A DNA stretch of 60,059 nucleotides, counting the filler, from Hausera hauseri (Eukaryota): NCBI GenBank assembly GCA_046269625.1. It is 11 parts of 11 records of this genome, joined end to end, with 100 filler letters (N's around TTAATTAATTAA, not from the genome) between each part and the next. Parts side by side here need not be neighbours in the genome. Positions count along the whole stretch, not along the records: positions 30,884 to 35,693 come from JBJURY010427697.1; 10 more parts are not named here. One strand, written 5' to 3'. Positions 9,139-49,300 of this stretch are shown here, in pieces. The translations under genes and the position numbers were made by a program. The notes beneath the pieces were generated by a model. That model did no database searches. It was not told the DNA's origin and worked only from the letters and a program-made list of their open reading frames with translations. Position 1 is the first letter of the stretch. Each line of letters opens with the position of its first letter.

Positions 9139-10960
9139 TAAGAAACAACTTGCTACTGCCGGTATTACCGCTATTAAAATTTTTTATGAGCCCCCTACTG
9201 CTGCATGTATTCCATAAGCTTTACCTAGTGCCGTAAATACTGTCCGTATGGCGCTAATAATGGAATATATAGCTAGAAAACCGGAAGCTGCTTGACCGAA
9301 ATATAAGAACTTTCCCCACATTTTCGCCATAACGTTTTTTGTTACTTTCTTTAAATAATCCTTACCCATTAGGTTTTCCTATTGCAGTGATTCTTCGCTA
9401 TCCCACATTACTCACCTAGTTAGTTCTGTTATAACTCTGTCTTTGTTAAGGAAACAACAACATTCGTCGATAATCCTCTAGATTTTGTTGTTTATAAATT
9501 CCTCCCTGAGATATTCCTGTTAAGGGTTCATATTTTTGATTCCTTTGCAGATTAATTAAACTTAATGTCTCCGGTTTGGCACTGGCTCTCTTTTTGGCAT
9601 TATAATCCACTTGCCGTTATCGATTTTAAACATTGGCGACATACTGAAGGTGTAATTATATAATGGACTAGGCTTCACATTAATATCTAATAGTATTCTG
9701 GTTACTGGCATGACATATTTCGCTAATGTATGGTAAACTACAGGTAATTCCATTGTACATTCGTCCGTTCGTCTGATTAATACTTCTACCTTCTTGCATT
9801 CTATTGTTATCAGTACCTCGCCCATTACACTTCCGATAATCCCGTCGCCGAAGGGCATTACTGGTGCTACCATGTCCGGATTTGTTATTACCAATGCCAT
9901 TTTATTACGCGTTATTTCATAGTTCAACTTACATTCATTTATTACTATTTCTCTATATAAACCTCTAATTTCTTTCCTTACACAATTAATTAGAAAATCA
10001 ATCTTATTACCGAAATATTGTGTTAACTTGATATCTTTCTTATCTATTTTGATTTTCGCCCCGGGTATTTCTATTCTAGACAAGAAAATACTCTTATAGT
10101 TGGTTTTTGATATTTCTTCGCCGCACTTATTTGCTACTCCGGTGACTTTAAATCGCATCATTTCTTCTGGACTTTCCGAATATACAAATGTAGCTACCTC
10201 CGTCATCTTGACTTCCTTTGTTCCTTCTTTATATGTCACTGTCTCTTTCCGCCCTTTCCCTACTGTCTTGTTAAACTTTCCTTCCTTTAACAGTGTCAAC
10301 CGACATTTACTTGCTGAGGTTTCCTATGTCATTTTCGACTCTCCAGTATCACATTAGCCATTATCATGTTCGCACTCACTCATAGTCGTCATCAATTTTG
10401 TTTTTCATATTCTTTCAACTGGATCTGATAATCTTCGATGGCTACCGTTCTAGGCGCAATAGTACCTCCAACATCATAATCCACTCCATTTACAGGTGAC
10501 TTCCATTGTTTTATATATTCTTCCTGCCCTGAAAATTCTTGTATATTTTATTCCTGTTTCGAACTGGCAGTAGGTAAGCGTTTTGTATAGTCATAATGCA
10601 AATCTTAAAAGCAACCTGGCATTCAGCTCGTGATATTATTATTGGTCCGAAAGGTGTTGTGGGCTCGTTTATGGCCGAATTTCCAGAATAATAGGCACAA
10701 TTTAACAGGAAAAATGATCTTTTTACATAACATTCCCTAATTTTTCTTTGATAAATTCGGATTCTTGATATACCCAGTATGTAAGGCCACTTGTAGTTGC
10801 TACTTGTTCTGGGTCAACTTCTGGGCACTTCTCTAAATCCACTAGAGAGTACTTCCGTCCTTCGCTAGGTGTAGAGTAGTCATAAGCCACTATACATACG
10901 GCTTTCGGCATTAATAATGACGTTATTAGGAGAATTTGAAGAATCTCCACTATTAACATA
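9139..10960 (-). pseudogene. Chuvirus-like (class III, gB-type) envelope glycoprotein with internal signal peptide
   Basis: Signal peptide MLIVEILQILLITSLLMPKAVC, then IVAYDYS...YSLVDLEKC, CNGVDY, ECKLNYEI, GEVLITIECKKVEV, CTMELPV, PVTRIL, and C-terminal WGKFLYFGQAASGFLAIY..AYGIHAAVGGS*KILIAV membrane region. These match chuvirus G motifs as I recall them. Confidence 0.82.
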
Positions 10961-12212
10961 CCTGTTATGCCTGGTCTAGAGGTGTTTGGCTGTGTCGCAG
11001 TTGGCGTATCTGTTAATCTTTCACGTTCTCCTGACCTTACTATATTGGTCATTAAGCTGGTCAGCCATTTACCTCTACATTGAGCCAAGTTTCCTAGCGT
11101 ATCTTTCAAAATTTTTACGGCTGTCTTTATATTTCTTTCAATCTCTTCTAGATTTTGAGTCTGATGATTAATTACTATTATTTTATATAAGAAATAAGAT
11201 ATAGCCGTTTGGGCTTTTTCTCGAGTAATTCCAGTTACGAACATTTTTTCTAAAATATCCAGTTCATGCACTTCGTTTATACGTTTTTCATCTAAGTTCT
11301 CACAGAATTGTCTATTTATTCGCAGCATATTATTACGTAACGTTGTGAACAATTCGTCTGCAATTATTACCTGCATGTCAAATAAGGCAAATGACGTATG
11401 CAACTTAGCTAATAACGTTCTTAGTAATGGATCTATATCCACCGATTCGGGAGTGCCATTTGTTCCTGCTAATAATAAACGTCTTACTATTTCTTTGTTC
11501 TTATCATTTCTGTTACAAATGTCACTTATTTTTGTCCCTTTTTGCCTACTTCTTCTTATAGCTTCCGTCTGAACTGTAACATCTTGCGTATCACCCCTAG
11601 GGATTCCTTCTACTCCGTGTAGTTCTATTTCCCTTAAGATATTCTATACTGTCGCCTGTGCTCTTGCCTCTGGATGTATTTCAGTTATCGTTATCGGATT
11701 GTATTTCTCACTTCTACATCCCATTCTTAATAATTTATCGTAGTTACATAGTGTCCCTCCATAATAATTTAATTTATAAGGACTCCCCTGGTAAAAGGTT
11801 AAAATCCTCAATCTTTTCTCTTAGCGTTTGTATATCGTCTGCTTCGTTCATCCTAATGACCCTCATATCTTGGTTTCATTCCCTTACCGTTATCCGTATG
11901 ACTTCATTTCTTCCTTTCTCGTCTTCGGCAGCTTTGGCCAATACTGTCCTGCTTATTTCTCTTATAGGACTCGTATCTTGGGCTAATAATACCAACTGAG
12001 GTAAGATCTCGTTCATCCTTTCTACCGTTACTTTATTGGTAAGTATCTTCAATATTGTGGTAGTCGTTTTATCTACATCGAGTATATTATCAGGACCGAC
12101 AGTCATTACTGCNNNNNNNNNNNNNNNNNNNNNNNNNNNNNNNNNNNNNNNNNNNNTTAATTAATTAANNNNNNNNNNNNNNNNNNNNNNNNNNNNNNNN
12201 NNNNNNNNNNNN

Positions 12213-26013: not shown

Positions 26014-29000
26014 TCGGCTGACGGTAAACTCGGTCTGAGTGTCTACCTGAATGGATTGTCCTGCCTTATTAACAGAGATTCTCTGGATATTCTCGTCTAA
26101 TAACTTTATATCTGGGTTAGTGAATCGTAGCATATCGCTAGGTTTTATTCCATGATGCTTGTACCAAGCAGGTACGACGAATTGGAATTGTGGTTTTGTT
26201 TTATAGATTTTAGATACGTTCCTTAGGTACAGACGATAGGTGATGTTGNNNNNNNNNNAATCTATGTCGCAACATTGCGTATGTTCTCCTGGCTCAAAAT
26301 CAAAATTTTTTGTTTCTTTTTAAAATTTTGAAACCTACCAAAATCGTAGTATGGTTTCCTAGCCTTAAGTCCAACGCATGTGGAGTTAGGCGAGTAATAG
26401 TGAATTGTTATTGATTGTAATAATCTTACATCTCCTTGTCTTTGACTTTCTTCGACTGTTGGTTTCTTTTCCGTTTTAATAGCCTCCAGTCTTTCTTCAT
26501 TTTTCCGAATTCCGTATAAACTTTCTAGTTTAGATTTTTCACGCCCCCATTTAGCTTGTATTCTCGGAATATAAGAAGCAATTAGCGATAATGCTAAAAC
26601 TATTTGAACGTACGATATCGGTCTTGCAAGTACTGAGGAAGTTTTTTTTCGCGTTGGCGTAAATTGTAACGTTTATTGAGTCGTATCTCCGTGTTGACAA
26701 CTCTTTGTATTGACACTACTTCTTCCTTTTCATTCTTGTTGATGTACACTGTGTGCGACGTAACTCAGGTAACTTTGTACGGTCCTCTGCCGATACGAGT
26801 TAATTTTAATGAAGTGCCTTTTTTGGCTACGGGATAGTGTACATAAATCCAATTTCTTTGCTCTAAATCATTCGGTCTTGTCTTCTGCTCATATTGTTTT
26901 TTAAACTGTTCTTGATATTCTCGAGATAGTTCCTTTGCGATCTCCTAATATTTTTGTAATCGTGTCCGTAGTACTTCTGCAAAAATTTGTTCTAAATCTT
27001 CGGGGTTGTCTGTGTATGACGTTATTCGTAAATCCGTTGGTAACACTGCTTCACGTCCATACATCATGCAAAATGGTGTGAATCCTGTCGTTGGATGTGG
27101 TGTGGTATTAATTGCAAATTGGGTTCCTTATAGAAATTCATTTTAATCTTTCTGATCCTTGGCTACCACCGTGGATAATATACGTATGACGGTAGCGTTC
27201 ATTTGCTCGACCATTCCGTTACACTGAGGGTGATATGCGGTAGTGGTCAATCGTTAGATTTTGAATATCTTAGTGATCTTCTCGAATAGTTCGCTAGTGA
27301 AGTTTCTTTCCCGATCTGTGAATATCTGACCTGGAGGTTTGTATCGGCAAATAAGTTTTCTCACTACGGCTTCTGCCAAGGTTTCCGCCTTTTGATCGAT
27401 TAGCGCTATAATTTCGACAAAATGAGTTAATCTGTCAATACAAGTTAAGATATACTTATTGTTCTTGTGAATTGTAGGAAGAGGTCCTACGGTATCCATA
27501 GATATGGCCTACATAGGTCTATGGGGTACATTAATTGATTTTAATTCGGCCATGTAGTTTTTTGTCTTCTTTTTTTTAGTCGCGCTTACTTCGCAGGCAT
27601 TTATCCAGTTCTTTACATTAATATAGATACTAGGCCAAAAATATTTANNNNNNNNNNATGTGTCCGGCTAAACATGAGTCATATTCCAACGTTAGCACTT
27701 TGGTTTGTAACCTTTTGAAATAGCTATCAATTTTCTTCCTTTCCGTTCGTAATATAAAATATCCTCATTGTTGTTGTCATTTAAGACGCAATATTTATGT
27801 CTGTGTCTGTGTATATGTTTCTTTAATTGTCGTTCTTTTGGTATAATGTCTTTTTTAGCAAATTTTATAACCTGCTGAATAACTTTATCCTTTCTTTGTT
27901 TTAAGGAGATTTTGATGGCTTTATCAAGCGCTAAGGCGCATTGGCGATCTACTATTGCCTCAAGTTGGCTTTTCTTCATTACCATGATTGCGCTTGTTTC
28001 AGTCTTTAATCTCGATAGTGCATCGGCATCTACATGCATATTTCCTGACTTATACTGGAATTCGATATTGTATCTCAATATTTCTTCAATCCATCTGTAA
28101 AATCTGCATGTCGGATTATTCGCTCGTTCCTTTAAAGTCGTGACGGCTTTGTGATTAGTAACAATTATAATTTTCTGTTCGTATACGTAAACGTTGAAAT
28201 GTCGAAGTGCTTCCTTTACGTCTAGGGTTTCTACTTCGGTAGAAGAATCATTTTTCTTGGCTTTATTCAAGGAACGTCCTCCATAAGAAATCGGGTGTTC
28301 TAATTCTTTATCTTCTCTTTTCTGCGCTAATTTATGTAAAATGCTTTCTTTACTGGCATCTGTTTTGATTATAAAAAACATGTTGAAGTCTGGGTATCGT
28401 AAAACAGGTTCACTTGTTAATATCTTTTTCATTTCATCGAAAGCTTTCTGTTCGACGTCTGTCCATTTCCGTTTAATTTCTTTTTTAAGTAGCCGGTATA
28501 GAGGTCCACTAATTTTTGAATTATCCGGCACGTACTTTGCGTAATATCTGCATAGTCCTAGCCAGTGCCTTAATTCCTTCTGGTTTTGTGGTTCTATACA
28601 GTCTGATAAATTATTTAATAATGATTTATCTGGCTTTGATCCTACTTCTCTAACTATATGGCCAAGGTAGGATACGGCATTTTGAGCCAATTTCATTTCT
28701 TCGAATTTACTTTCAATCAGGTTTGTTCCAGTCTCATCAATGTATGTTTGATATCCTTTAAATGTTCTTCTTCGGTCCTTGACACTATCATTATGTCATC
28801 TAAGTATGCAAAAGCATAATCCAATCCCATTAACATTTTGTTCATCATTCTTGTAAATATGGATGGTCTGGTAGTAATACCGAACGGCATGACGTTAAAT
28901 TTATAAACACCATCGTGTGTCTTAAATGCTGTCTTATAACGATCTTCACCATCAATCTCCACTTGCCAATATCCGCATTGTAAATTCAGAGTGGTAAACC

Positions 29001-30783
29001 ATTTTGCTCTTGAGAGTATGCCAAATCCTCTTTCATTTACGGTAATGAGAAGGAATCTTTTATCATAAGATTATCTAAGGCTCTGTAGTCAATAAAAATC
29101 GATGTTTTGTGGTACCTTTCTTTTTAACCATGAGGATTGACGAATACCAAGATCTATAACTAGGCCTAATAATATTGGCCTTAAGCATTCCTTCGACTTC
29201 TTTCGTTATTTCGGGTCTTAGTAAATGTGGCGGAGGGTACCATTTTGGCATCTTTTGGTCTTCCAAGTCTATTTCTTCGTTCGAACCAGGCTTTTTCTTA
29301 AGTGGAATAATCAATTTCAATGCTTTTGCTCTACCGATATCTTCTTTGTCTTTAGCGATAATCGATTTGTAGCGGCACAATAATTCGTAGAATCGACAAT
29401 AAGATTCAGGGGCGAACTTAGTTTCAACGTGAGGTAGAAATTCGGCATACTTATACGGATTTTCTTCAACAGTTACTGACAACACCCTATATGTATCTCC
29501 TAGAGTGGTATAGGTATAAAGCTTGACAGGAGTTGGTGCATTATTTGATATTCTGATCGGTACACGACCGGAGTGTACTCTTGTCAGTACGTTACTGAGC
29601 GTTATATTTTATTCAATGTCTCTCTTGGTTTGAAATATACCGGTTGATCGTCATCTTGCTGAATTTGCCCGTGAATTATCACTTTTGTTCTCGGTGGAAT
29701 ATCTTCGTCTACGGGAATCCGTATCTCTCCAAATTTTCTATCCTTAGCGTTTTTCACGCATTTATTTGGCGTGATTTCTATTAATTTCCCTATCTGTAAG
29801 TCGATTGCTATATTTGGTAATCTTTGCAGTAAATCACATACTAGAACTACGTCGTCAGTTAATTGCTCCATAACTGAAAATTCGTGATGGAAAAACTGTC
29901 CAACTATTTGAACTTCTGGGTTCCATTTGAACATCGGTTTCGACATTTGACCAAGAGCTCCTGTACTTCCTGGATCGTTCATTGACGGTGGATATAAATA
30001 TCCTCTTAGCGTTTGAGGTATTAAACCATTTTTGACGTAAGACATCTCAAAACCTGTATCAATTAACGCATAAACTTCCCAGTCTTCGATAACTATTTTA
30101 GCGAAAGGTCTTCATTCTATTACTGTTCCGAAGCAGTTTGATGCTACTTTTGGGCGTTTAGTCACCGATATTTTATGTCCACTGATTCGGATTTCTGGGG
30201 AGGATACTATGTTTTCCGCCAGCTGCCTTAATTCTCCATTTGGATATAGTTCATTATTTTCGATATTTAATTCTGCCACTTCATGAGTAGTAATTAACGG
30301 TTCTCGATTGTTATTGTGTAATTCGGTATTCTGGAAGGTTCTTAACCTCGGACTGTCCCACACCGTTGATCTAGTTTCTATATTCCGAGGTTCTCTGGGG
30401 AAATACAACAACTTGGGATCGTCCGTGGATTGTCGATAACACATTTTCCGGAGGATCCCATATCGTTTCGTTCATTTATAAGGGTCCTCTACATTAATTG
30501 TCCTTTTATGAATTTCCGTCTGATATGAACTCATGGATCGTTTGTCACAGTCTTCATAGAATGGAACAGTAGGAGGTAGCATAGGCGCTTTGATGGCAGA
30601 ATATGTCTTATGTCTGTTTATTCTTGAAAGTGTTTCTCCTCCCTTAGGCTCGTCATTGTCTGAATTATTTCTTTGCGTATTATGTTTTATGAATTTTCGC
30701 TTGTACAAAAACGTAGGCCTTCCTTTCCTTTTACGATGATAATATCCGACATGGCGCTCTACGTCCGTTTTCCATGTGTTCTC
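26014..30783 (-). mobile_element. Family B copy 1: glycoprotein tail - PR - RT - RNase H - IN - post-IN secreted-type domain (decayed)
   Basis: WKTDVERHVGYY tail shared with contigs 7 and 8; LIDTGF; GYWQV and AYLDD; IKTDAS; MDTVGPLP; GPYKV; then RPISYVQIVLALSLIASYIP. Confidence 0.9.
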
Positions 30784-30883: not shown

Positions 30884-33800
30884 TCTCATAAAGGAAGGAA
30901 GAAAGGTAATAAGAAAATAATTGACGTAGAGATTGGATCAAGAGAAACGTCAACAGAGAGGGACGAGGTAGTGAAAGGAAAGAAAAGAGGAAGAAAGAAG
31001 AGTACCTTAGTACACCCTCATTGGACGAAGATGAACCTGAAGCTACACCAATATTTGATGAAGTTATATCAGATCAAGTAGTAAGGAACCCAGGTGTAGA
31101 CTTAGACGAGGAGGAGGATATCAATCAGGCAGTATTGGCTGTAGACCCCGGTAATATAATTAATGTGGATAAAACGACTACTACGATATTGAAGATAATT
31201 ACCAGTAACGTAACGATAGAAGGAATAAACGAAATCTTACCTCAATTGGTATTATTAGACCAAGATGCCAGTCCTGTCAGAGAAATAGCCAGGACAGTAT
31301 TGGTTAAGCCGTAGAAGATGAGAAAGGCAAAAATGAAGCTATACGAATAACGGTAAGAGAAGGAAACCAGGACATGAGGGTCATCAGGATGAATGAAATT
31401 GATGACGTACAAACTTTAAGACAAAAGATTGAGGAGTTGGAGCCTTTTTATCAAGGGATTCCTTATGGATTACATTATTATGGAAGAACACTATATAATT
31501 ACGATAAGTTATTGAGAATTGGATATAGAAGTGAGAACTACAATCCAATAACGATAACCGAAATACATCTAGAGGCAAGAACACAGGCAACAGTGGAGAA
31601 TATCCTAAGGGAAATTAAACCACAGGAAGTACGAAATGCCATGGGTGATACACATGATGTCACAGTTCATACGGAAGCCAAGAGAAGAGGTAGGCCGAAA
31701 GGGACAAAAATAAGTGACATTTGTAACAGAAAAGATAGGAACGAAGAAATAGTAAGACGTTTGTTATTAGCAGGAACAAATGGCAGTCCTGAATCGGTGG
31801 ATATAGATCCATTACTAAGAACGTTATTGGCTAAGCTGCATACGTCATTTGCCTCATTTGACATGCAGGCAATAATCCCAGACGAACTGTTCACAACGTT
31901 ACGTAATAATATGCTACGAATAAGTAGGCAATTCTATGAGAATTTAAATGAAGAACGGATAAATGAACTGCATGAGCTGGATAGTTTGGAAAAAATATTT
32001 CCAACTGGAATTACGCGAGAGAAAGCTCAAACGGCTATATCTTATCTACTATACAAAATAATAGTAATTAATCATAAGACACAAAATTTAGAAGAGATTG
32101 AGCGGAATATAAGGACAGCAGTAAAGATTTTGAAAGATACGTTAGGAAACTGGGCTCAATGTAGAGGCGGATGGCTAACCAGCCTGCCGACTAATATAAT
32201 AAGGCCAGTAGAACGAGAAAGATTGACAGATACGCCAACTGCGACACAACCAAACACTTCTAGACCAGGCATAACAGGTATGTAAATACTAGAGATTTTT
32301 CAAGTTCTCCTAATAACATCATAACAGGATGCTCATACATAATAAAAGGATGCTCATGGAAAATCATAATAGCTATAATACCCTCAGTAGCAAGTTGTTT
32401 TCTAGCAAACCACGATGCACGATGGAAAAGGAAAAGATTACAAAGGAAGGATGTAAAAGAATCTCCGTATAGTGTACCTGATGATGACGATACAGAATAT
32501 AGTCAAGTAAAAGCAAAGAAACGAGAAGCTGCAATCAAACAACTAATGCTGAAGACACGGAAGCTAATAACGGACTTACCCCGTCTAGATCATGTGGATG
32601 GATATCATGGACAGTTATATAATGAACAACCATTAATAAATCCTTCAGCTCCCCGATACGTAGTACAAACAGGACTATATCCTATACATCAAGTGCAACA
32701 GATGAAACAAAATTCTGATGAAACACGAATCTACGTATACAGTTGACGATAAAAACGAACGACAGCCACCTATAATACCAGAAGTAGAAATAGAAGTGAA
32801 TGGATATCCAATGACGGCTCTACTAGACACTGGATCCACAACAACAATAATGGGAAGAATCCAATTGCCAAAGCAGTTAAAAAGAAAACCACGTATACCA
32901 ACAACTACCTTGGTAAATGTAGGCGTATTCGGCACAGAGGAAGAAATCAAGTTGGTCTTAGATTCCGAAATCAAGATCGGTGAACAAATTTTGAAACATA
33001 CTATAAGAATAGCAGATAATCTGACTAAAGAAATTTTAATTGGGTGCGATATACTAAACCAATTGGAAAATGTTCATATAGATGTGAAAACTTGACAACT
33101 CAAGACGTTCAATGAAGATCGTAACGAGGGAATGGTTTCGCTAGCAAGAGACATCACGATTCCACCACGATGCGAGATAGTGGTGCCTGGAAAAATAGAA
33201 AGTCGTGTCGTACCAGAGATTATATATTTTGAACCGTCCCCACAGGTTATGGAAAAATATGAAGTTCTAATTGCCCCTCACGTGGATAAAGTAAGAGATG
33301 GAAAGATCCACTTACGAATCTGTAATACAACAAAGAAAAACGATTACGGAAGGGTACTAGACTGGGAAAAATAACGATCACTTAAGAAATAATAAAAGAA
33401 GAAATCTGCTCAATAATATCAGATGTAGATAAAATAGAAAAGATAATGACCGCCAAAGTGAAAACCAGACGAAGATAAAAGAAGAAATAAAACCACGAAC
33501 ATCGATTGGAACGAGAGGTTACAAAAATGCGAAATTATAAGTAAGAAAGAGAAGGAAATGTAATTGAATTGTTGGAAAAGAATAATAGTCGATTTGCACA
33601 AACTGATAATGATTTAGGCACAAAGAAAATAATACAGCATAACATTAAGTTAAAGGACGGACACGACAAGCCAATTAAGAAAAGAGCATACCGATTAGCA
33701 TACAATAAAAACAGGAAGAACGTAAGATAATAAAAGAAATGAGGGAAAATAAGATAATTCGACCGAGTTGCTCCCCATGGACAACGCCAGTGGTAATGGT

Positions 33801-35693
33801 TAAAAAGACGGAACTGAGATTCTGTATAGACTATAGAGCCTTGAACGAAATAACAAAGATGGATACATATCCCTTACCAAGAATTGACGAGATAATAGAT
33901 AAACTACACGGATAGACCATATTCACAACCATCGATCTACAAAAGGGTTATTGGCAAGTGGAGGTTAAAGAAGAAGATAAACCAAAGCCAGCCTTCTCAA
34001 TTGGAGAAGGGTTATGGGAGTTTAATAGAATGCCCTTTGGATTAAAGAATGGACCGCCAACGTTTCAGAGAAGAACAAATCTCCTGCTGTTAGATGCCCC
34101 ACATGCAATGGTATATATCGATGATGTAATAATAGCATCACCAAATTTTCAAGAAAATCTAAGGGATCTACAAGACCTCTTAGATAGATGTGAAATAATG
34201 GGTTTAAAAATAAATCCAAAGAAATGTTCATTTGCTTAAGCAGAAGTAGATTTCCTCGGACATAGAGTAGATAAGCATGGCGTAAAACCTCAAGACAAGC
34301 TTTTAGGAAAAATAAGAGATTTTCCAAAGTCAGGTACAGTTAAAGAATTACGTCAATTTTTAGGTTTAGCAAACTATTACCAAAGACTCATAAAGGATTT
34401 TAGCAAAATCGCGAAACCTTTGTATGAATTATTACGTGAAGATCTAGATAAAGTAATCTGGACAAATGAATGTCAAAAAGCTTTTGAATATTTAAAAGAT
34501 AGACTATTAAAGGCTCCTATATTAATTTATCCGGACATAACCAAACCATTTATTTTGGCAACAGACGCAAGTGATTATGGAGTAGGAGCAGTATTATCAC
34601 AAAAGGGCAAAGATGGAAAAGAACACCCAGTAGCTTATGCTTCACGAAAACTTAATAAGCATCAGAAGAAATATGCCGTAATAGAAAGAGTTATCAGAAG
34701 TAATTTTTGCCTTGGAAGTATTCTCACAATATATTAGTGAAAATAAACCTCTCTTGATCTATACGTATCATAGACCGCTTCAATGGCTAAAACAGCATGA
34801 AAATCCCAACAGCAGACTACTACGGTTGGCTCTAAAGTTACAACCCTATACATTGAATTTCCAGTATAAGCCTGGATCGCGAAATGCCAATGCCGACTAC
34901 TTATCGAGAATACCTGACAAGTCAGAAACAAAAAGGCACTAGTCGCAGCCGTATGGAGTATGGATGGATCAATCGAGAAAATTAAGACGAATTAAAAAGA
35001 AGACGTTGAAATAAGGCCCATTAGAAAGTACATAAAAGACAAATTCATACCAGTTTACAGAGAGCTAACCCGTCACCTGGCTCGATTAAGCAAAGCTTAT
35101 GAGGAAAAAAAAGGATTTCTACACTTTATTAATCAAAACGGACCTGCGTTAGTAATTCCTAAGAAAAATAGAGCAGTTCTACTGACGCAATTCATGATGG
35201 ATTACTTAGAGGACACCAATCGACCAATAAGACACTAAACAAGCTAAAACGGAAATACTTTTGGCCAACGATAACGAAAGATGTACAGGAATGGTGCAAG
35301 AGCTGCAAGCTTTGTGCAACCCGAAAAAACAGGATCAAAATTCAAAGTACCCCTAAAGGTATGGGACAACCCTCCAGCGCCATTCGAGTTTACCGCAATG
35401 GATATAACGGGACCATTACCATTGACTAGGAATGGAAACAAATATATCTTGGTCTTCATCGACTATTTCACCAGATGGGTGGTTGCCCTACCAATGCATG
35501 ATACGAAGGCAGACACAATCGCTGAGAGATTTCTGGAAAATATAGTATTTAATTTTGGAGCTACAAGAATCCACTTGACCGATCAAGCGTCAAATTTAAC
35601 TGGAACTGTAATGCAGTCATTATACGACATCTTGAAGATATTGAAATTACGATCCACGCCGGGACATCTGGAGAATAATGGAATGGCTGAGAG
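30884..35693 (+). mobile_element. Family A copy 2: Ubl/AT-hook/helical region - glycoprotein deleted - PR - RT - RNase H - IN
   Basis: Collinear with and very similar to contig 2 (DIDPLLRTLLAKLHTSF, LLDTGS, YIDD, TDASDYG, MDITGPLP), but lacks about 1.7 kb of glycoprotein. Confidence 0.92.
31341..32285 (+). CDS. N-terminal polyprotein segment: ubiquitin-like domain (about 31341-31572), AT-hook (RRGRPK), helical domain
   Basis: Open frame IRITVREGNQDMRVIRMNEIDDVQTLRQKIEELE..GIP..LHYYGRTL...; homologous segments in contigs 2 and 7. Confidence 0.6.
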   Translation: MRITVREGNQDMRVIRMNEIDDVQTLRQKIEELEPFYQGIPYGLHYYGRTLYNYDKLLRIGYRSENYNPITITEIHLEARTQATVENILREIKPQEVRNAMGDTHDVTVHTEAKRRGRPKGTKISDICNRKDRNEEIVRRLLLAGTNGSPESVDIDPLLRTLLAKLHTSFASFDMQAIIPDELFTTLRNNMLRISRQFYENLNEERINELHELDSLEKIFPTGITREKAQTAISYLLYKIIVINHKTQNLEEIERNIRTAVKILKDTLGNWAQCRGGWLTSLPTNIIRPVERERLTDTPTATQPNTSRPGITGM

Positions 35694-35793: not shown

Positions 35794-38700
35794 AACAAAG
35801 TAATTCGTAAAATCGGCAGTATGATTCGGGCAAATTTAATTGTAATGTAGGGTGGAAATTCGGTACATTTATAAGGTTTCTCTTGAATAGTGACTGACGA
35901 GGCTCTATACGTTTGTCCCAAAGTAGTATTGGCATATAGTTTGATCGAAGTGGGCGCATTATTCGCTATCCTGATCGGTACACGCCCTGTTGACACCTTC
36001 GTTAAAATATTACTGAGTACGATGTTTGGATTAAGCGATTCCTTTGGCTCAAAATATACTGGCTGATCGTCATCTTGACGTATCTGAGCATATATTAATA
36101 TTTCGATTCTGAGATGTATGTTTTCATCCACGGGAATTCACACCTCTCCGAAATTTCTGTCTTTAGTGGTTTTAACTCCTTTTATTAAGTTAAGTTCTAT
36201 CAATTTCCATGCATTGAAATCTATCGCTATGTTGGGTAGTTGTCTCAATAGGTCGCACCCTAATACTACATCATCCGCTAATTGTTCCATTATTGAGAAT
36301 TCGTGATGAAAAGATTGTCCCATTATATGAATTTCTGGTCTCCATCGGAATGTGCTTTTAGACGATTGACCGAAAGCTCATACACTTCCTGGGTCTGTTG
36401 TGGGAGGTGAATATAATTGTTTCCGTAGGAATTGCGGTATTGAATCATACTTTATCAGTAATATTTCGGATTCTATATTTAACAGTGCGTAAACTTCCCA
36501 ATCTTCCAATTGAATTTTTCGAAGGGCCTACCTTCAATTACCGTACCGTAATAACTTAGTGCTATTTGGGAGTATCGTATCGTGGACACCTTGTAGCGGT
36601 TGACGGTAACTTCTGTGGCTCCAACTGTCTGATCGATTAATTGTCTTAACTCTCCAATTGGGTATAGTTCGTTATTCAGACCATTCGCGTTTTCTAATTT
36701 CTGTTTTTCAACTGGCGGCTGGATTTTTTGGTTTTTGAAATGGTGTGTTTCGCGGCCTCCAGTAAATGTTGAATGCCTTTCGTTTGTTCTAGGTATTCTA
36801 GGTGAATAAATTATACCGTGATCGTCGACTGCTGATTGACAATGCGGGGCAGACGTTTTTCTGTTTTGTGGATCTTACGCAATATCCCGTAGTGTTTTGT
36901 TCCTTCGTAAGGATCCTCTAGACTAAACGGCTTCCGATAGACCCCTGTCTGGCACGAACTCATAGATTGTTACTCACAGTCTTTATATATAGGTGCCGTT
37001 GGCGGCAGTATTGATAATGGTAATTTCATAACAGAGTAGTTTTTGTGCCTATTCGTTTTGGAGACAACGTCTCCTCCATTAGACTCGTCATCGTCAGAGT
37101 TATTTCTTCTTGTCTTACTATCTATTACGTTTTGCCTGTAATCGAATATGCGTCTTTTACGTTTTCGATTATAGTAGCCAACGTGTCGTTTCACATCCGT
37201 TTTCTATCTAATCTCTTCATAAGCATTTAAGAATTTACCGAGAGGTGTTATAATAGCTGTTAGAATCTTACACAAGAATCCTGTCAAAGTGAATATCCCG
37301 TATTCATTTATAATCGCTTGAATTATTGCTTTGATCAGTTGAATCAAGAAATAAATTGCTAGGAATCCTGACGCGGCTTGTCCAATTATCAGGAATCTTC
37401 CAATATTTTATACAATATTCCCGTAGTTACTTTTCGGTAGAAGTTAACACCGAGCAAAGATTCCAATTTCGCTTGATGTCGCGAGTCCTCTAGTATTGTA
37501 TGCTTCGCTTTGTTTAATTTATGTCTGCGTTGACGGAGAAAAGCGAGGAATTATCTGAACGCCTCCACGTCTTTCGGTCGATAAATGCCCTTTGCGGCTG
37601 TATCTTGAAATTTATCATCGGTTATTACTTTTATTAAGTTTGTTTCTGTTAGCTTGGTCGGTGGCGTAATTATGCCGCCGTTTGGAAAACTTACCCAGCG
37701 ACGTCTGAACATTGGTTCTCCCAGGTTGGTCTTGCAGTCTCTCAGAATTGTCGGTTAAGTAGAGTTTGCCAACAGTACTCTAGTAATTGTTGTTACTAGT
37801 CTTGGTACGTCTTGGTATATTACTGGAAGTTCCTGTATACACCTCTTCTCTTCCACATTAATAGGTACATCTTTTTGATATTCATAGGTCAGTAGGACTT
37901 CTCCGGTTACCCGTCCGAAAACGCCTTCTTCGGAATTATTGGTGACGCTAATTCGGGGTTAGCATATATTAAAGCCAGTTTAGTCCTCATGACTATCAAG
38001 TCCAATTTGCAGTCATTTGTTATCATTTTGTGATATAACTCGGCTATTCGAGCTTGTACTTTATAGTAGAAATAGTCGTCTCTATTTTTCAAATAATCCT
38101 CAATTCGAATATCTTGAGTCTCGAGCTTAAACGTCCTGGCGTTTATCTTCGTCTCAGCTACACAGAATGCTTCACAATTGGTGGCGTACATTATGACATC
38201 GCATCTTGTGATTACATCTTCACAAATTTTAATCCATAAGTATCAGAAATCAGTATAGTAGGTGTGGACTGTTCGGCTACATTTCGTGTTAGAGTTGTTT
38301 CCGTGCTACTTATGTATTGTTTCCCTGTAGTCTCATTAAATTTAAGTTCTTTAATTCTGATAAAATTGCAATCGGTCTTGGCTGGGGGTTCCCAAATTAC
38401 CACGGAGCTTCTAAAAGAGCAAGTACTGTCCTGAATGTGGCACTTCTGGTTTTCCGTGTAAAGTTTAGTAACGCTATGGAACATTACTTTTTGTAGGCGC
38501 ATCTCGGTTTTGTAAAAATCCACCACTACGATGTTCGACTCCAGCCCTTTTCCAGTATCGTATTCTGCGCCATTACAATGTCCGGTGTGCATATCTAGTT
38601 TTCCAGCTGCCACTTTATATACTCTGATTATCTTTCTTTGTTGCATTTCTAATTCCATGCCATCCCATTTTAATCTTCCAGTCTCTCTAGCTTGCTTACA

Positions 38701-40625
38701 ATGCTGGCTTTCTAAGTTCATCGGAATTGGTGGGGTTGTTGGCTTGATTATCGATGAATGCCCATGTACCAGTCCACAATGGAAAATACTACGGGATCGT
38801 TGCAACTTACATTTTATTCCGTCTAATGTAACTAGTTCGTGCTGTTGATACAGCACTTAATTTTTCTCTTTTGTTTTTAGTTTATGTGGTCTCGCATCTT
38901 CACACATTTCTATGTCCATTAATGAGTATTTTTGGCCAAGTTTAAATTTGTCGCAGTCGTACACTGTAACTGCACCCATTTGTCTTATTAACATCATCAC
39001 GATTAAGAAGTTAATTAACCAGTTTGGCTCGTTTCCTCTATTATTTCCAGCTACGTTTCGTAACAAGTCTTCAAATCTATTATTGCCAAGGAAGGGTTTA
39101 TTTTGATGTTCGTCTTTTTCAAATAATTTGGACCAATTTACTTCTCGGGACAGTTTCCTGACAGCCTTCCTTGCCAAGCTAGTGGTCTTATTAAATTCGT
39201 TTTTTCGGACCGGATTGGTTTTAACGGCCAAATATAGCAACGCTTTTCTTAACTCCTCCACGGTGTTCTCTACTATAATTTTCTCGATTACCGCTTCATC
39301 GCTTAAGGTGCTTCTGGATAATTTACACCGAAAATTTTTCATGGCCTTGGCTGCATTAAATATAGTCTTCTCTTTTTCGTCTAGTATATCACCACCGAGA
39401 CTAGAGTGATTTTTTCATGAGTTCATTCAGTTCTTCGTCATCTGCACTGAGGGTCGGTACGGACATTTGTCTCAATTTTCTGATTAAGTCCCTATTATAA
39501 TCGATTTCTTTTCGTGTCTTTCGCGGCCTACCGACAGGACGCTTCTGTTTCGTTACAGTCGGTTCGGTATCACTGGTTGGTACTAGATACTTATCATATT
39601 GTTCCTTGTCTTCGTCTGTTTGCAAGTATTTGAGGTACATTGCTGCATCTCGAACTCATACAATTCATCCTACCCACTGTTCAGTCTTTGCTTTCCTTGT
39701 GGCCTCTTGTTTCGTCAGTGGGAATCGTTACTACTATCCGGTTTGCATCGTCTGGAATAATTCCGACTTCTATTAGTAGTTCCAGTTTGTCTAATATTTT
39801 TCCTCTAAAATAAAGTCTACAGATCAGCTCATTTGTATGGCCATTGCTCCTTAACCACAGTGCTACATCCTTTACAAGATAACGTGTAGTAAACTCGTGC
39901 TCATTCTCGTCCATCCAGTCGGGCGTTATTCTTACTTTAATCGTCTCTTTGGGCCTTGTCTTTAAGATTTTAGCATATTATTTGATTAAAAGTTTAGGTG
40001 CAGCACTATAAATCGTACCTTCGCTGGCTAATTTAGTTAGGGTGGGAACTAACTGCCTTAATTGATTTTCAGTAAGGTTTACATTGATTAACTTAATCAG
40101 ATCATTTTCAGTTTGTGCTGAATCCAGAAGCATCTTCACGCTGAATTTCTGATCTGGTGGACACGCCTCCGTTTTGTACAAGTGCACCGGAGTTTTCGGG
40201 TTTTTGGCGAATATTGCATTCAGATACGCGTCCCATTCGTTTTCTTTTTCGGGTAGTCCGAAATCAATCTCCGGAGTTTCTAACGGTCGGACTAAGTTCG
40301 CATCCTTTATTGATTCTTTTAGTTCCCTTAGTTTTTGTTGCATTATAACCATTTGCGTGGTTTGGAAACAACGTCATTTTCCGGAAGTTTGGCGTAATAT
40401 TGTTAGCAGCTGACATAATTCTTCAGCTGATATAAATCCTTGTTCTTGATAATTAGTTAGCTCAGATGCTACGTCTCTTTGCCATCTTTGCACAAATTGT
40501 GACTTGTCAGCCTTTTCTGCTTCTGTAAGAGCATACTTAGTTTTATAAATTTCGAGTTCTTTAGTTAGTTCGTCTAATCTTACCGCTCTCTGTTTGGTTT
40601 TAATGCAAGTTTCTTCAACTTGTCG
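35794..40625 (-). mobile_element. Family B copy 2: coiled-coil/Ubl/AT-hook region - chuvirus-like glycoprotein - PR (decayed)
   Basis: RLYFRGKIL Ubl-like motif; VGRPRK; signal peptide and glycoprotein; EGRP..WEVYALLN protease start and VVLGCDLL. Homologous to contigs 5 and 8. Confidence 0.88.
37230..39022 (-). pseudogene. Chuvirus-like envelope glycoprotein, family B
   Basis: WLINFLIVMMLIRQMGA / VTVYDC...YSLMDIEMC; IFHCG; CNGAEY; NDCKL; GEVLLTY; CIQELPV; TRVL; IGQAASGFLAIYFLIQLIKAIIQAII membrane region. Confidence 0.85.
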
Positions 40626-40725: not shown

Positions 40726-43700
40726 GGGATAGGTTAAAATAGCCAACTGTACAATAAAATGATAAATAACGACTGTAAATTAAATATGGAAATTATGAGG
40801 ACAAAATTAGCCCTTATTTATGCGAATCCTAAGTTAGCCTCACCTATCATTCCCATGAGAGAAGAAAATTTTGGTCGAGTCACTGGTGAAGTAGTACTAA
40901 CATATGAATGCGAGAAAAGAGACGTACCAATTAATGTCGAGGAAAACGATGCATACAAGAACTTCCTGCGATCTATCAGAATACTCGGCGCTTAGCTATG
41001 CCTCTCACCAGAGTGTTGCTCGATAATGCGACACAACCAACCATTATAAAAGATTGTAAAGCAAGTTTGGGCGAACCAATGTTTAGGCGTAGCGAAACAG
41101 GTTGGATTAGCTTACCCAATGGAGGTGTCACTATTATTCCTAAAAAACTAAATGGGACTAATTTAGCAAAAGGAATTACCGACGACAAGCTCCAGGATAC
41201 ATCTCAAAACGGCATTTACAGACCAAAAGAGATCGAAGCTTTTCGACAATTTCGTGATTTTCCACGACAGCGAACACACAAATTAAACCGAGCTATGTCA
41301 TCAGTAGTAGACGATACCCGCCACCGGGCTAAATGGGAATACTTGCTTGACGCGAACCATTACTAGCGAGTAACCACAGAAATACTCTATAAAATATGGG
41401 GAGGATTTTTAATTTTTGAACAAGCTGCATCTGGATTCTCAGCAATCTATTTCATGGTACATCTGGTAAAGGCGGTAATCCAAGCGGTTATAAATGGGTA
41501 TGAAATATTCACGCTAACAGGATTTTATTGCAAGATCTTAACCGCGATTATCACACCGTTTGGCAAAATGCTAAAAGCATACGAAGAAAATCGATGGAAA
41601 AATGACGTTGAACGCCATGTCGGCTACTATAATTACAAACGTCGAGCAAGACCCATACTTTGACTGAAACGTATGGTTAAAAAACCAATGACTCGAACAA
41701 ATAACTCCAATGATGACGAGCCTAAGGGAGGAGATGCGATCCTCAGACAAAATAGACACAAAATTTATTCAGTAATTAGAGCACCTTTACCCATCATGCC
41801 GCCAAAGGCTCCAATATACGAGGATTGTGACAAAACATCTATGATGTCATATAGATCAGCATTCTGTTAGAAACCCTTCAGCTATGAAGATCCTTATGAA
41901 GGAACAAAACAATATGGAGTCTTAAAGAAGATGCAAATCACTAACCAACGACGAGCGGAAGACGACCATGGGATATTGTACTCACCGAGGATAGCTCGAA
42001 ATATAGAAACAAGATCAACAGTATGGTGAACGCAAGGAGTAAACTCGTTCTAAAAGCCAATAGTACAAGAACTATTAATTAGAAACAATACGAATAACAT
42101 GGCAGTTAACGACTTATACCCTAACGAAGAACTGAAACAGCTGACCGAAAATATTATTTCATTACCAGAGATAACGATAAACGAACATAAAATTTCCTCG
42201 ATTAAACGACCAAAAGACGTGTCAAGTTGTGATGGGTCAGTCATTGAAGGAAGACCCTTTACAAAAGTTATTATAGAAGATTGGGAAGTCTAAGGTTTAA
42301 TAGACACCGGATCAGAGAAGTCGTTTATCAAATTAGAATCGATACCGCCGACACTCCGAAAGCAACTGCAGCCGGCATCATCATCAGACCCAGGCAGCAT
42401 GGGAGCCTTCTGGCAAGAATCCAAACCAAAATTTAAATGGAGTCCTTTAGTCCAATTAATGGGCCAAATTCTACTACATGAGTTTGCCATAATGGATCAA
42501 TTAACCGATGATGAAGTGCTAGGTTGTGACATACTGAAACAATTACCCAATATCGCAATAAACTTACAGATTGGAAAGCTACTAGAACTTGGACCAGTGA
42601 AAGGAATTAAAACAATGAAAGAAAGGAAGCAAGGAGAAGTATGGATCCCCGTCGACGAAAATATTCCGCCTAAAACCGAAATGCTAATTTATGCTCAAAT
42701 CCGCGAAGAGGACGATTAACCAGTATATTTTGAGCCACAAGAAGACGTTAATCCAAATATTATACTCAGTAACATTTTGACAAGAGCAGCGAGAGGAAGA
42801 GTACCAGTCAGATTAGTGAATAACGCACCAACTCCTGTAAAATTATATGCCAATACTACTTTGGGTCATACTTATAAGGTATCAGCAATAACGATCGAAG
42901 AAAAGCCGTACAAATATGCCGAGTTTCCACCTCATGTTGAAACTAAATTTTCGGCAAAAGCATATTGTCAGTTTTACGAACTACTATGCAAATATAAGTC
43001 AATTATTGCCCAAAATAAAGAAGGCATAGATAGAGCGAAAACCTTAAGATTAACCATTCCATTAAAAAAGAAATCTGGATTTAATGACAAAATTGATTTG
43101 GAAGAGCAAAAAATGTCAAAATGGTACCCACCGCCTCATTTATTAAGGCCCGAAATAACTAAAGAAGTGGAACGCATGTTAAAGGCCGACATAATACGAT
43201 CAAGCTACCGATCTTGGTACTCACCAATACTTATGGTCAAGAAAAAGTGTACCACAAAACATCGATTCTGTATAGATTACCGAGTCTTAAATACATTGAT
43301 GATGAAGGACTCATTTCCACTACCATCAGTAAAGGAAGCTCTAGACAGATTATCAGGAGCAAAATAGTTTACCACACTGGATTTACAATCCGGATATTGG
43401 CAAGTAGAAATTGAAGAAGATGATCGTTATAAGACAGCATTTAAAACGCACGATGGAGTTTATGAATTTAACGTCATGCCGTCTGGTATAACAACCGGCC
43501 CAACTATTTTTACTAGAATGATGAGCAAGATGCTAATGGGACTAGCTCATGCGTTTGCGTATTTAGACGATGTAATGATAGCGTCCAGAACAGAAGAAGA
43601 ACACCTAAAGGACATCAAGGATACTCTTATGCGATTGGAACAGGCAGGATTGAAACTAAACCCAAAGAAATGCAAATGGACACAAAATGCTTTGTCTTAT

Positions 43701-46290
43701 CTCGGACATATAGTCAAAGAAGGAGGATCGAAGCTAGACAAATACTTATTAAACAAAATATCAGATTGTATGGAACCCAAAAATCAGGAAGAATTAAGAC
43801 ATTGGTTAGGCTTATCGGATATTATGCCACCTACGTATCAGACAATTCGAAAATAAATGCGCCGTTATATCGGCTATTGAAAAAAGGCATCAAATGGAAA
43901 TGGACCGATGTAGAACAGAAGGCGTTCGACGAAATGAAGAAAATTTTAACAATTGAATCAGTGTTAAGATACCCGGATTTCAATTTACCATTTATAATTA
44001 AAACAGACGCAAGTAAAGAATTATCTCAAAAATTGAATACGAAGAATTTGAGCATCCAGTTGCATACGGAGGACGATAGCTTAAGAAAGCTGAGACAAAC
44101 TATTCAGTCACTGAATTAGAGACACTAGTCGTAAAAAAAGCATTGAGACATTTAATGTCGATGTCTACGGACAGAAAATTACTATAGTTACCGATCATAA
44201 AGCTGTCACGACGTTAGAAGGACGGGCCAATAACCCACAATGCAGATTAAATTGGTGGATTGAGGAATTTTCGCGATACAATATTGAATTTCAATATAAA
44301 CCCGGAAGCAAACACATCGACGCAGACGCTCTATCAAGACTTAAAACAAAGACAAGCGCAATTACAGCCATGAAATAAATCAAGCTCGAAGAATTGGTCG
44401 AGCGACAGCAGACCCTGACACTAAATAAAACGATCAGAATTTCTGCAGAACAAGCTAAAAATAAAGTCATCCAACAGATAGTTAAATTTGTAGAGCAAGA
44501 CGAGATAACAAAAGGACGTCAACTAAAGAAACACTTACAGAGACACGGACACAAATATTATGCATCAAATTCGGATAATATTGTATATTACGAATGAAAG
44601 GGATGGAAATTGGTAGTTATTCCAAAAGGATTACGAACGAAAGTGTTAATGGCCGAACACGATTCACATTTAGTCAAACATGTCATGAAAGAAAAAATTA
44701 GAAAGGATATTGAATAAGTACTATTGGCCAAGTGTTTATATCGACGTGGAAAATTGGGTGGACGCTTGTGAAGTCTGCGCAACAAAACAAAGAAAATTGA
44801 AAAACTATATAGCAGAATTAAAACCTATCGACGTACCAGATAGATCTATGCAAGATATGTCTATGGATATAGTATGACCTTTACTTACAACTCATTAAAA
44901 TAACAAATATATTTTGACATGCGTAGATTGTTTAACGCACTTTGTGGAATTAATCGCATTAATTGATCAGAAAGCGGAAACATTAGCAGACGCAGTAGTA
45001 AGGAAAATCATCTGCAGATACAGACCGCCAGATCAAATATTGACCGATAGAGGAAGAAACTTTACAGCGAACTATTTGACAAAATTTCTAAAATCTTCCA
45101 AATCGAACGTATAAATACAACAGTTATACGTGTCTTATCAACCGTAGTAGCGAAGGATCAAAAAGACTGGGATGAATTTTTAGAAGGAACACAATTCGCT
45201 ATCAATACTACCCCACACCCCGCCACAGGATTTACACCATTTTTATGATGTATGGACGCAAAGCGATTTTACCTACGGACTTAAGAATGACTCCGTATCA
45301 CGCAAATCCAGAAGATTTAGAGCCAAACTTCGCAGAAGTCCTACAAATGAGACTACAAAAATGATGGGATATAGCTAAGACGCTTACTCTCGAGTATCAA
45401 GAACATTTTAAGAAAAAATATGATAAGAAGGCCAAACCTCATGATCTAGAAAAAGGAAACTGGGATTACGTATACTATCCAGTTGCAAAGAAAGGTACAT
45501 CATTAAAACTCACTCGCACTGGATGAGGTCCCTACAAAGTTATTCGAACCACACCAACTACGGTGTACATTAAGAAAAATGGCAAAGAAGAGGTAGTATC
45601 TATTCAGAGAGTTGTTAAAACAGAAATAAAACCCGAAAGACGTTACAATTTGCGATCTAGCTCGCAGCAAGATAGAAAGAAAACAAAAACATCCTCCATA
45701 ATCAATAGACCAATATCGTACATTCAAATAGTGTTAGCACTCTCGCTAATTGCCTCCTATATCCCGAAAACACAAGCTAACTGGTGGTACGACAGTAGAA
45801 CGAGATTGAATGTTGCTAAAACAGAAAAGAATTCAACAGTCGAAGTAAATCAAAGACAAAAAGATGTAAGATTATTACAAGCAATAAGGATCCACTATTA
45901 TTCGCCTAACTCCACATGCATTAGATTAAAAACACGAAAACCACTCCGAAATTCTGGAAGGATCCAAGTTATCTTAGATGATGTAATAACAAAGAAAACA
46001 AAGAACTGTGACTTTGAGTCCGGAGAACGTACGCAATGTTGCGACATAGATTTCGAACATACTTATAATCTGACCTATCTAATGTACCTACCAAAATTAT
46101 CTAAAATTTACGAAATAAAACCACAATTCCAACTAGTTATTCCTGTTTGGAATAGGCATCATGGAGTAAAACTGAACGAAATGTTGCGATCCACTGACCC
46201 AGACATAAGACTGCTAAACGAAAATATCCAGAAAATCTCTGTGAATAAGAAAAGACAATGTATTCAAGTAAATACTCGGACGGAACTAAC
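40726..46290 (+). mobile_element. Family B copy 3: glycoprotein C-half - PR - RT - RNase H - IN - post-IN domain
   Basis: NDCKL, GEVVLTYEC and QAASGF..IY (glycoprotein); LIDTGS; FCIDYRVLN, DLQSGYWQV and AYLDD; IKTDAS; CEVC; LTDRGRNF; GPYKV; RRYNLRS; then a hydrophobic segment. Confidence 0.92.
45700..46290 (+). CDS. Signal-peptide-led, Cys-containing domain fused after integrase (unknown function, truncated by contig end)
   Basis: In frame with the integrase GPY motif. ISYIQIVLALSLIASYIPKTQA / NWW...; NxS/T sequons; conserved in contig 5 (26014-26625, minus strand). Confidence 0.65.
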
Positions 46291-46390: not shown

Positions 46391-49300
46391 AGCACTTGAA
46401 AAACTCGCCTTACTGGCTGATAAAAGCTTTGATATCCTTCAATCAAACAACTCACAACCAGTAGCTGTTGCAACCCCGCTTACGCAATCACAAACGGATA
46501 CGACTATGTTCACACAGCAACTAAAAGTAATGCAAAACAATTTGACTCCCTGCAATAGTCAATTTCAGCCATTACAGCTCAGCTAAATACTTTAGCTGTA
46601 TCTTGACGAGTTGAGACCCGCCACTTGCGTGAGCGTATCCTCTCTAGGCATTCTTTTAGTCACAAATCGCCGGACAGACAAATAATTTGTTTTTATTACG
46701 AAACGTTCCATAGAGACGCAAAGAAGTATATTTTAGGTTGTCGCTTTTATACCGAGCGTTTTTCAGTGGACACCCCCACTTGTATATATCACACAAAGTA
46801 TCAGTCCAAGGCTTTGTCATGTGTGCCAGGATGCAAACATTATAAAAAAATTTCAGCTTTTGTCCATTGTCTTCTCCTCCTCGCTGTTCTCTTTATTCAT
46901 CTTCATTTTCCCAAAAAATCTCAAAAAACTAATAACGCCGCCAGATGCCACGGCACACTTTGGCATAAGCAACACCGCCTCTTTAGTCTTTCTGTTGAAA
47001 GCTGCACTGTTATTTGGAGACACCTCACACAGACTTTCTTATCGACTGAGGAGCTGCTTTTTCACTTCCTCCTTTGTCCTTCTCTCCTACATATGATGCA
47101 GTTTTTCTCCTCCCCTCTTCACTGCATGTGGTCAACCCTTACAAATAGCAGGTATCACAAAATTGTCTTTCACATTCTCCAACCTGCCATGCAAATTTTC
47201 TTGGAAATTTTACTTAGCCATTATTAGATCGTCCATAATAGTCTCCGATTTCCTAGTTGCATACGATTTGTTAGTCGACTGTAAGCATGGATGTTCTCTG
47301 CGTAGAAATTCAGTTGTAGATGCCAACAAATGCCCACCAGACAACCAGTCGGTCAACTTCTTGTCTTCCTCTGTTCATTCAAATATGGATTTGACATGCT
47401 GTTCGTCTACTGATAACAACATGGTTAATATTTCATCCATATTTTCAATTACATCAAGTGGGACCAAGTCAATTTTGAAAAAATCGGTTGAATCGAATTT
47501 CATTAGTAGCATCCTAAGCCATTCTACGTTAGTCGCAGCAATTGACTCTTCCAATCATATTTCCCCATCATTCTTATCGCTAGAGGCCAATTTAAAATCC
47601 TACATCACAACTTCTTGCTTCCGCACACTCAAAAAGGACGTCAACTTCAAGTCGCCTTCTACAACTTATCACCACATAGTCATCGAACACCAAAGACCTA
47701 TTAGACAAAAGGTCAGACCACTGTCACCTTGTAGGCGAAAAATCGTTGAATCAGAGTTCAATAAACTCGAAAAGGCTGGCATTATTCGAAGATCAAAATC
47801 ACCATGGGCTTCACCATTGCATGTAGTAACAAAGAAAGATGGCACTTACAGACCATGTGGTGACTGTCGGCAGTTAAACAACCTAACAGCCCTGGATGCT
47901 TACGCTTTACCTCTCATAAAGGACATCCTGCACAGTTTTACTAATACTAATACGTACTCGACAATTGACTTGCATAAAGCTTACTATCAAATTCCGGTTG
48001 CACCTGATGATATTCCCAAAACTGCTGTTATTATTCCATTTGGCGTCTATGAATATATCTTTGTGTCATTTGGTTTATGTAGTGCTTCCCAAACTTTTCA
48101 ACGACACACTGATACCGTCCTCTCAGGCCTTGACTTTGCGCATCCATACATTGATGACATATTAGTTGCCTCTAAATCTGGTAAACAACATCAAGAACAC
48201 TTTCGTATCATCTTTCACAGACTACATCACAGGAATTTGCAAGTCAACTTCTCCAAGTGTCATTTTATTCAAAAACGTGTAAATTTCCTGGGTCACGTCA
48301 TCACGCCTCACGGCTACTCCCCACAACCGGAAAATATAACGCTACCTATAGTTTCTTTCACGTTATATCCGTCGATTTAAGGTTTTTGATAGATATTGGT
48401 CCTCAAAGATTCGATTAATTTTTTTTAATTGAAAATTGTGATCCACGAAATATGAGACAGTGACAGATCAGTTCGAAATAATATTTGGGCGATTTTGTTA
48501 TATTCCAGAATATCATACAATATGGCTACAAATACAAGCCTTGAAACTACTCGCAAACTGTATTTTAGTGGAAGGATTAGTATAAAACAAAAATTCCAAC
48601 TATCCAGCAATAATTCAAAATACAAATAACGCACATCAAGTAGACTAAAAAACTGAAATAACCATAATTGAACTATCCAAATAATCAATGAAAATACAGA
48701 TTTGCCAGTCTGATAATAAGAGAAATACTGTTATTTTTGTGTGGGGCAATGTGGGCACCACACTACCAACGATAATTACGGATATGAGGAGTTTCTTAGG
48801 CACACTTCACTTCATTCACAAATATGTACCGCATTGTTCTGAGCTTACAGCACCTTTTGCACATTTATCACCCGGAAAAAAGAGGCAGTCAATCCACTGG
48901 ACTCCTGATTTAGCCACCAAATTCGATGAGTTACGCGAAGGCGTAAAAACCGTCGAAATACGGGCCTATCCAGAGCGCAACGCAGATCTTATACTTACCA
49001 TCGATGCCTCTACCACAGCTGCTGGTGCAGTACTACACCATATCTCTAACGGCGTTGATGAACCATTAGAATTTTACTCCCGAAAACTCATACAACCCGA
49101 AAGCCATTACTATACGTTTGACAATAAAATATTTGCCATAGATTTGCCAGTAAAACATTTCAAACACCTACTTCTCTCTCGTCTATTCGTTATTCAAACT
49201 GACCACAAACCTCTCCTGCATATCATGTCGTTAAAACAGCCATCACCGAGGCAAGAACGACATGTATCATACTTGTCTACATTCAATTTTGTTTTACAAT

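Follow-up and report, generated by a model that had tools for sequence, protein, structure and literature searches.

The window, a 60,059-nucleotide stretch of Hausera hauseri DNA (GCA_046269625.1) composed of short contigs joined by N spacers, contains Burro-like GAG-ENV-POL Ty3/gypsy elements that encode a real ubiquitin-like domain (Ubl) under selection, a type of cargo that is already known. We favor, with a probability of roughly 0.6, the reading that this Ubl, kept by selection inside the polyprotein, serves as a fixed module for docking to the host and not as a conjugated tag. That docking would be directed toward host ubiquitin-proteasome or cell-survival proteins is a more tentative proposal.

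Related elements were present on five of the contigs. Copy A1 occupies a whole contig (5949..12112, minus strand) and is ∼85% identical to copy A2 (30884-35693, plus strand). Family B, a distant relative of family A, comprises copy B2, again a whole contig (35794..40625, minus), together with B1 (26014-30783, minus) and B3 (40726-46290, plus), whose contigs end before the Ubl; the mutual identity of these three is ∼68%. All copies of both families are decayed, and with contigs of 4.8-6.2 kb, the Gag of the window copies is off-contig and element size and LTRs are outside the view. Of the 128 window ORFs of at least 85 aa, 111 were scanned with Pfam. The matches followed the gypsy order of protease (PR), reverse transcriptase (RT), RNase H (RH), and integrase (IN), and in A1, B2, and B3, the protease was preceded by a Monjiviricetes fusion glycoprotein. 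The composite order is Gag, helical module, Ubl, AT-hook-like motif, weakly Bcl-2-like domain, mononegavirus-type Env, PR, RT, RH, and IN, the Gag part being visible only in P0002, a relative of family A (39% identical over 332 aa). In a single frame, P0002 leads from a Gag-like start with a CCHC knuckle through the Ubl and a Bcl-2-like region into the glycoprotein. The pol region of A2 (32706..35693, plus), which contains many breaks, encodes protease, a weak dUTPase-like linker, RT, RNase H, and integrase; for the region between PR and RT, three of four PDB matches in a profile search were dUTPases (best E 0.53) and no Pfam dUTPase match was obtained. Contigs of the public run X1, which may be the window's own source and whose depth does not equal copy number, matched A2 with 17,836 pieces and B2 with 8,822 pieces and covered 30 of 30 bins, those of the Ubl included. 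Thus, the Ubl belongs to a repeated family and is not a one-off insertion.

The initial annotation had proposed a ubiquitin-like segment at the same position of both families, and the two peptides are indeed found at the coordinates it gave: in A2 at 31341..31571 (plus), inside the ORF 31308-32282, and in B2 at 39720..39944 (minus), inside the ORF 39684-39977. In A1, one stop and a gap of 2 nt interrupt the domain (about 11671..11899, minus). Counted by hand, the end of the Ubl is separated from the env signal sequence by 238 codons in A2 and 233 codons in B2, consistent with the positional match. Evidence for the A2 segment came from profiles, ESM Atlas, and dN/dS; that for the B2 segment came from ESM Atlas and a joint profile.

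Judged by these comparisons, the family A segment is almost certainly a Ubl. Neither window segment had a Ubl match in Pfam or NCBIfam, and no single-sequence E-value against the PDB was significant for A or B, with nothing relevant returned for B. With a profile built from family A only, the top three PDB matches were the RAD23A UBL (E 0.16-0.17), and four of nine matches were Ubl. When the B segment was included, 13 of 14 matches were Ubl-containing chains (best E 0.0089), among them 2daf and 1wx8, which we take to be UBL domains. A control profile, combining A with a neighboring non-Ubl segment of B, retrieved no Ubl among three matches, and other segments of the same elements likewise gave none (0/4, 0/6, 0/4, and 0/3). 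The ubiquitin pattern that had been recognized by eye is, therefore, borne out by the joint profile. Searching 1.84 billion proteins with this profile resulted in five matches, namely P0002, one multi-ubiquitin protein, and three repeat artefacts; the representative-search matches P0001, P0003, and P0005 were discarded as such. Adding P0002 to the profile raised the share of Ubl to 17 of 20 PDB matches (best, RAD23A UBL, E 0.0014), a result that is partly circular because P0002 had been picked with an already Ubl-leaning profile. The Ubl of P0002 itself matched Pfam ubiquitin with an E-value of 0.031, short of the cut-off, and word-index homolog searches and metagenome/viral locus scans gave no match. 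In the ESM Atlas, a ubiquitin cluster was ranked fourth for A (0.90; 145 features) and first for B (0.93; 172 features), 10 of 10 named matches of B belonging to one clan. A core leucine and a turn glycine around strand 3, and a leucine after that strand, are present in A1, A2, B2, and P0002 and presumably correspond to ubiquitin positions 43, 47, and 50. In single-sequence AlphaFold models of low confidence (pLDDT 51 and 48), the order of strands and helix was compatible with a beta-grasp for B (two strands, a helix, and three strands) and partly so for A; fold searches with these models of pLDDT ∼50 gave a best Z of about 4 and no Ubl among the listed matches. Taken together, the segment matches integral Ubl domains by sequence profile, and a beta-grasp fold is predicted. 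Pfam matches to the Ubl clan at 17645-18043, 26265-26672, and 42720-43364 (E 0.1-0.15) were taken as noise. A second Ubl suspected by eye in family A (31129-31305) was rejected, since none of its three PDB matches was Ubl and its counterpart in P0002, by alignment, is a helical segment.

The annotation had described the two proteins that contain the Ubl as barely alignable, which holds for the Ubl region and does not hold for the RT, where A and B are ∼51% identical (53/104). BLASTP found no match between the A and B Ubl segments. A local alignment contained 8 identities in 30 positions, in register (shuffle p 0.004 versus 0.73 for the control), and hhalign gave an E-value of 0.042 at a probability of 1% (control E 0.97). 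It could be argued that a whole Ubl exists in family A only and that the B segment is a half-domain or a look-alike: taken alone, B lacks any PDB or Pfam Ubl match, its putative second strand is polar and weak, and BLASTP assigns its first half to a rival register, aligned to the helix before the Ubl of P0002 (E 0.007 and 0.027). However, the segment upstream of the B Ubl is collinear, without gaps, with the pre-Ubl helix of P0002, at a score reached by none of 500 shuffles, which places the first strand of B in Ubl register and favors the register originally proposed over the rival one. Ubiquitin at rank 1 of the ESM Atlas, and the fact that B improves the joint profile where the control segment destroys it, further render a half-domain unlikely. 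On the strength of its sequence, the B segment is probably a full Ubl.

The Ubl of family A is under purifying selection. Between A1 and A2, dN/dS was 0.14 over 74 codons, and of the 35 differences, 22 fell on third codon positions (p 3e-7). The same pair, the only one on which these ratios are based, gave 0.13 for RT, 0.10 for integrase, 0.20 for protease, 0.16 for the Bcl-2-like domain, and 0.37 and 0.32 for the flanks of the Ubl. In this pair, the Ubl is thus as constrained as reverse transcriptase, and it persists in families whose accessory regions can no longer be aligned. The absence of a C-terminal Gly-Gly, already remarked upon for A2 and B2, extends to A1 and P0002; the A2 and B2 segments each read on into the polyprotein, which supports the view of an integral, non-conjugatable domain. 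The predicted surface of the domain is different from that of ubiquitin. In a register set by hand from HMMER-printed UBL alignments, A2 and P0002 have His at the place of Ile44, A1 has Asn, and B2 has Tyr. At the places of Leu8 and Val70, for which the register is less certain than for 44, A2 carries Gly and Thr, B2 carries Asp and Thr, and P0002 carries Tyr and Ala. With positions assigned by ubiquitin numbering, which we assume to apply here, the hydrophobic Leu8/Ile44/Val70 patch is absent in A2, B2, and P0002.

The modules adjoining the Ubl were preserved to varying degrees. Upstream of it, a helical module (31129..31305, plus, in A2) is frameshifted relative to A1 and shared with B2 (∼39930-40160, minus) and P0002. 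Downstream, an AT-hook-like basic motif is found in A2 (31680..31703, plus), kept in P0002, and degenerate in A1; a pattern match occurs after the Ubl of B2 (39518..39544, minus), and these two account for two of the four pattern matches in all six frames of the window. In P0002, AT-hook-like motifs at residues ∼305-312 and ∼583-590 flank the helical module and the Ubl, and A2 has an upstream basic cluster at ∼30970-31000. The next domain of A2 is helical and weakly Bcl-2-like (31737..32180, plus). Its Pfam Bcl-2 match (E 0.025) and that of P0002 (E 0.055; profile positions 6-100 of 100) are sub-threshold; no Pfam Bcl-2 match was obtained for A1 or B2, and Bcl-2 was not among the PDB matches. 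B2 has a frameshifted helical domain at the matching place (39115..39502, minus), without significant homology to that of family A (p 0.33 and 0.28).

Farther downstream and upstream of pol, the Env of A1 (9200..10945, minus) consists of a signal sequence, a mononegavirus-type fusion glycoprotein (Pfam Monjiviricetes_fusion, E 2.6e-26), a membrane region, and a tail, which continues into PR in one frame, stops aside. That of B2 (approximately 36900..39021, minus) matched the same family with E-values of 1.5e-12 and 1.3e-6. In A2, the signal sequence and the last membrane segment are left without the ectodomain that should separate them (remnant, 32280..32347, plus); ∼1.7 kb of ectodomain and membrane region found in A1 is absent, and the frame spanning the Ubl and the Bcl-2-like domain is still open. 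Contigs of X1 showed a loose end at 32347, which fits the env side of this deletion. The env signal sequence lies ∼30 residues past the Bcl-2-like domain (32172-32322, plus; 10945-11059, minus) and could serve, in addition, as a tail anchor of Bcl-2 type. Just before the protease, the env tails of A1, A2 (32642-32653, plus), and B2 contain a tetrapeptide of late-domain type, presumably the conventional Tsg101 ligand.

The layout of the elements is very probably Burro-like. For planarian Burro elements, which are described as giant Ty3/gypsy elements above 25-30 kb in length with LTRs, a "Ubi2/SUMO-like" motif (PF11976) before BCL-2 and an env in frame between gag and pol have been reported (PMC6431247). 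A Ubl in a Gypsy polyprotein is, therefore, not new: Burro carries this cargo at this position, in print since 2019. As described for Burro/GYPSM1 (PMC6431247), the likeness extends to an N-terminal Gag with a CCHC knuckle, seen here in P0002, a Ubl directly before a BCL2-like domain, sub-threshold here, a mononegavirus-like env that follows BCL2 and precedes the protease in the same frame, and a dUTPase-like region between PR and RT, weak here. Differences were observed as well. Burro ORF1 is given as 4,873 aa, and its cargo between Gag and Ubl as MATH, BIR, RING, and ankyrin (PMC6431247), whereas in P0002, the Ubl begins 460 aa after the protein start and none of these four domains was found before it (Pfam, E ≤ 0.1), the same region being off-contig for the window copies. 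P0002 is, therefore, far more compact, and family A appears more compact than Burro proper; ORF1 of D. tigrina is likewise reported to be without MATH (PMC6431247). The Burro Ubl is labeled SUMO-like there, whereas RAD23 and ubiquilin UBLs were the closest PDB relatives of the present domain; all of these comparisons with Burro draw on its published description. The term AT-hook does not occur in the main text of that paper. Compared with published Burro, the selection evidence, the RAD23/ubiquilin-like signal, and the AT-hook neighbor are additions, albeit modest ones.

GAG-ENV-POL errantiviruses are reported from Nematoda, Bryozoa, and Platyhelminthes, and the gene order of the present elements is that of Smed_errantivirus_1-6 (Platyhelminthes, HSV/gB-type; PMC13524379). 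By eye, the Env of A1 has cysteine spacing and several motifs in common with the six "Platyhelminthes_C1a" rows of that study, none of which looks identical to it, and the Env of B looks like another subtype; the main text of the study mentions neither ubiquitin nor Bcl, and its supplementary files do not mention ubiquitin (PMC13524379). Burro is mentioned without domain detail in the relevant parts of PMC11410931 and PMC8532177, and the layout of families A and B is not described in the accounts of Troyka (PMC12440569) and Cer1/CERV (PMC10309623), as far as these sources were available. Functional studies of a Burro-type Ubl were not found in the open-access literature. According to a second-hand report, B-IAP, an apoptosis-blocking cargo of Burro1, protects planarian stem cells (PMC13465017), so a soluble domain of 75 residues would be an easy handle on how such elements engage host ubiquitin and apoptosis pathways.

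How might a docking module of this kind operate? RAD23 and ubiquilin bind proteasome receptors through a hydrophobic patch. Together with IQUB and UHRF1, they provide the best profile matches of the Ubl, and their integral UBLs, too, lack Gly-Gly and are embedded in a larger protein; the E-values are modest, however (best 0.0014), and the patch is replaced in the present domain. Cleavage by signal peptidase at the env signal sequence, inside the polyprotein, would free Env and leave a cytosolic Gag-helix-Ubl-AT-hook-Bcl-2-like product. The signal sequence retained on this product could provide the kind of tail anchor that Bcl-2 proteins usually have. Through a surface other than the canonical one, the Ubl would then bind a host partner; a proteasome receptor or a shuttle partner is the most plausible candidate because RAD23 and ubiquilin UBLs are the closest relatives of the Ubl in the structural database, and binding may tune the turnover of the anti-apoptotic module. 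A more specific version is quite unlikely. In it, the compact elements would release a Ubl-AT-hook-Bcl-2-like protein with the env signal sequence as tail anchor, and its His/Tyr-substituted Ubl of RAD23/ubiquilin type would be a selective decoy for proteasome receptors, ensuring the survival of host stem cells and, with them, of the element. Alternatively, the Ubl may act in cis only, as a fast-folding, solubility-raising, or stabilizing spacer in a long polyprotein that has no host partner. Ubiquitin fusions are known to aid expression, the canonical binding patch was lost while core positions were kept, and selection on the Ubl resembles that on other folded domains. Nevertheless, a Bcl-2-like domain is consistently the neighbor of the Ubl, and Burro has MATH and BIR next to it as well, all of them related to ubiquitin or apoptosis, and His at the Ile44 position is common to A2 and P0002 despite only 37% identity of their domains; a pure spacer is thus rather unlikely.

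The adjacency of Ubl and AT-hook in A2, B2, and P0002 is also reminiscent of UHRF1, whose UBL was the top single-sequence PDB match of A (E 0.32), and could point to a module that sits on chromatin and, on the AT-rich DNA of the element itself, counters silencing or serves as a decoy. With the deeper A+B+P0002 profile, however, UHRF1 fell to place 13 among 20 matches, the hook of A1 is degenerate, and the signal sequence farther downstream would hold the product at a membrane unless a protease frees it, so this explanation is doubtful at best. The initial annotation had suggested a ubiquitin mimic, for example in ESCRT recruitment or as a decoy; in the former case, ESCRT would be engaged by way of a patch of the Ile44 type. 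Budding is plausible because the elements encode an envelope glycoprotein, and the residue of B at the Ile44 position is aromatic. Yet ESCRT mimicry is unsupported because Gly-Gly is lacking and patch residues are replaced in all four sequences; in addition, the env tails already contain the late-domain-type tetrapeptide, and the Ubl is intact in the env-deleted A2, although that deletion may postdate insertion. Such a mimic is very improbable. The same applies, to an even greater extent, to a processing signal cut by a host deubiquitinase. Pestivirus polyproteins carry ubiquitin insertions as signals of this type, and the Ubl does reside in a polyprotein that needs processing, but none of A1, A2, B2, and P0002 has Gly-Gly or a single-Gly end after the last strand, and the element has a protease and a signal-peptidase site of its own. 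Docking of the integral Ubl to a host partner remains the reading we prefer, and a decoy role by way of a different surface is conceivable.

Other features of the window were noted in passing. After the integrase, B3 (45527-46290, plus) and B1 (26014-26672, minus) have an extra ORF with a hydrophobic, signal-like stretch and cysteines; it had no significant Pfam match and may encode a second surface protein. At 46391-50394 (plus), there is one more gypsy pol, with RT, RNase H, and integrase, for which BLASTN gave no link to families A or B. A distinct gypsy gag with a CCHC knuckle and a protease fragment (12213-14799, minus) adjoin a DDE_3 (Tc1/mariner-type) transposase fragment. Judging from the Env, a flatworm host is plausible, but the G+C content of the non-element contigs is 37-40%, higher than the value given as under 30% for S. 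mediterranea. Another element, at 50495-54577 (plus), encodes an integrase followed, by eye, by two aspartic-protease-like stretches, and also has a 470-aa ORF with hydrophobic segments and no Pfam match.
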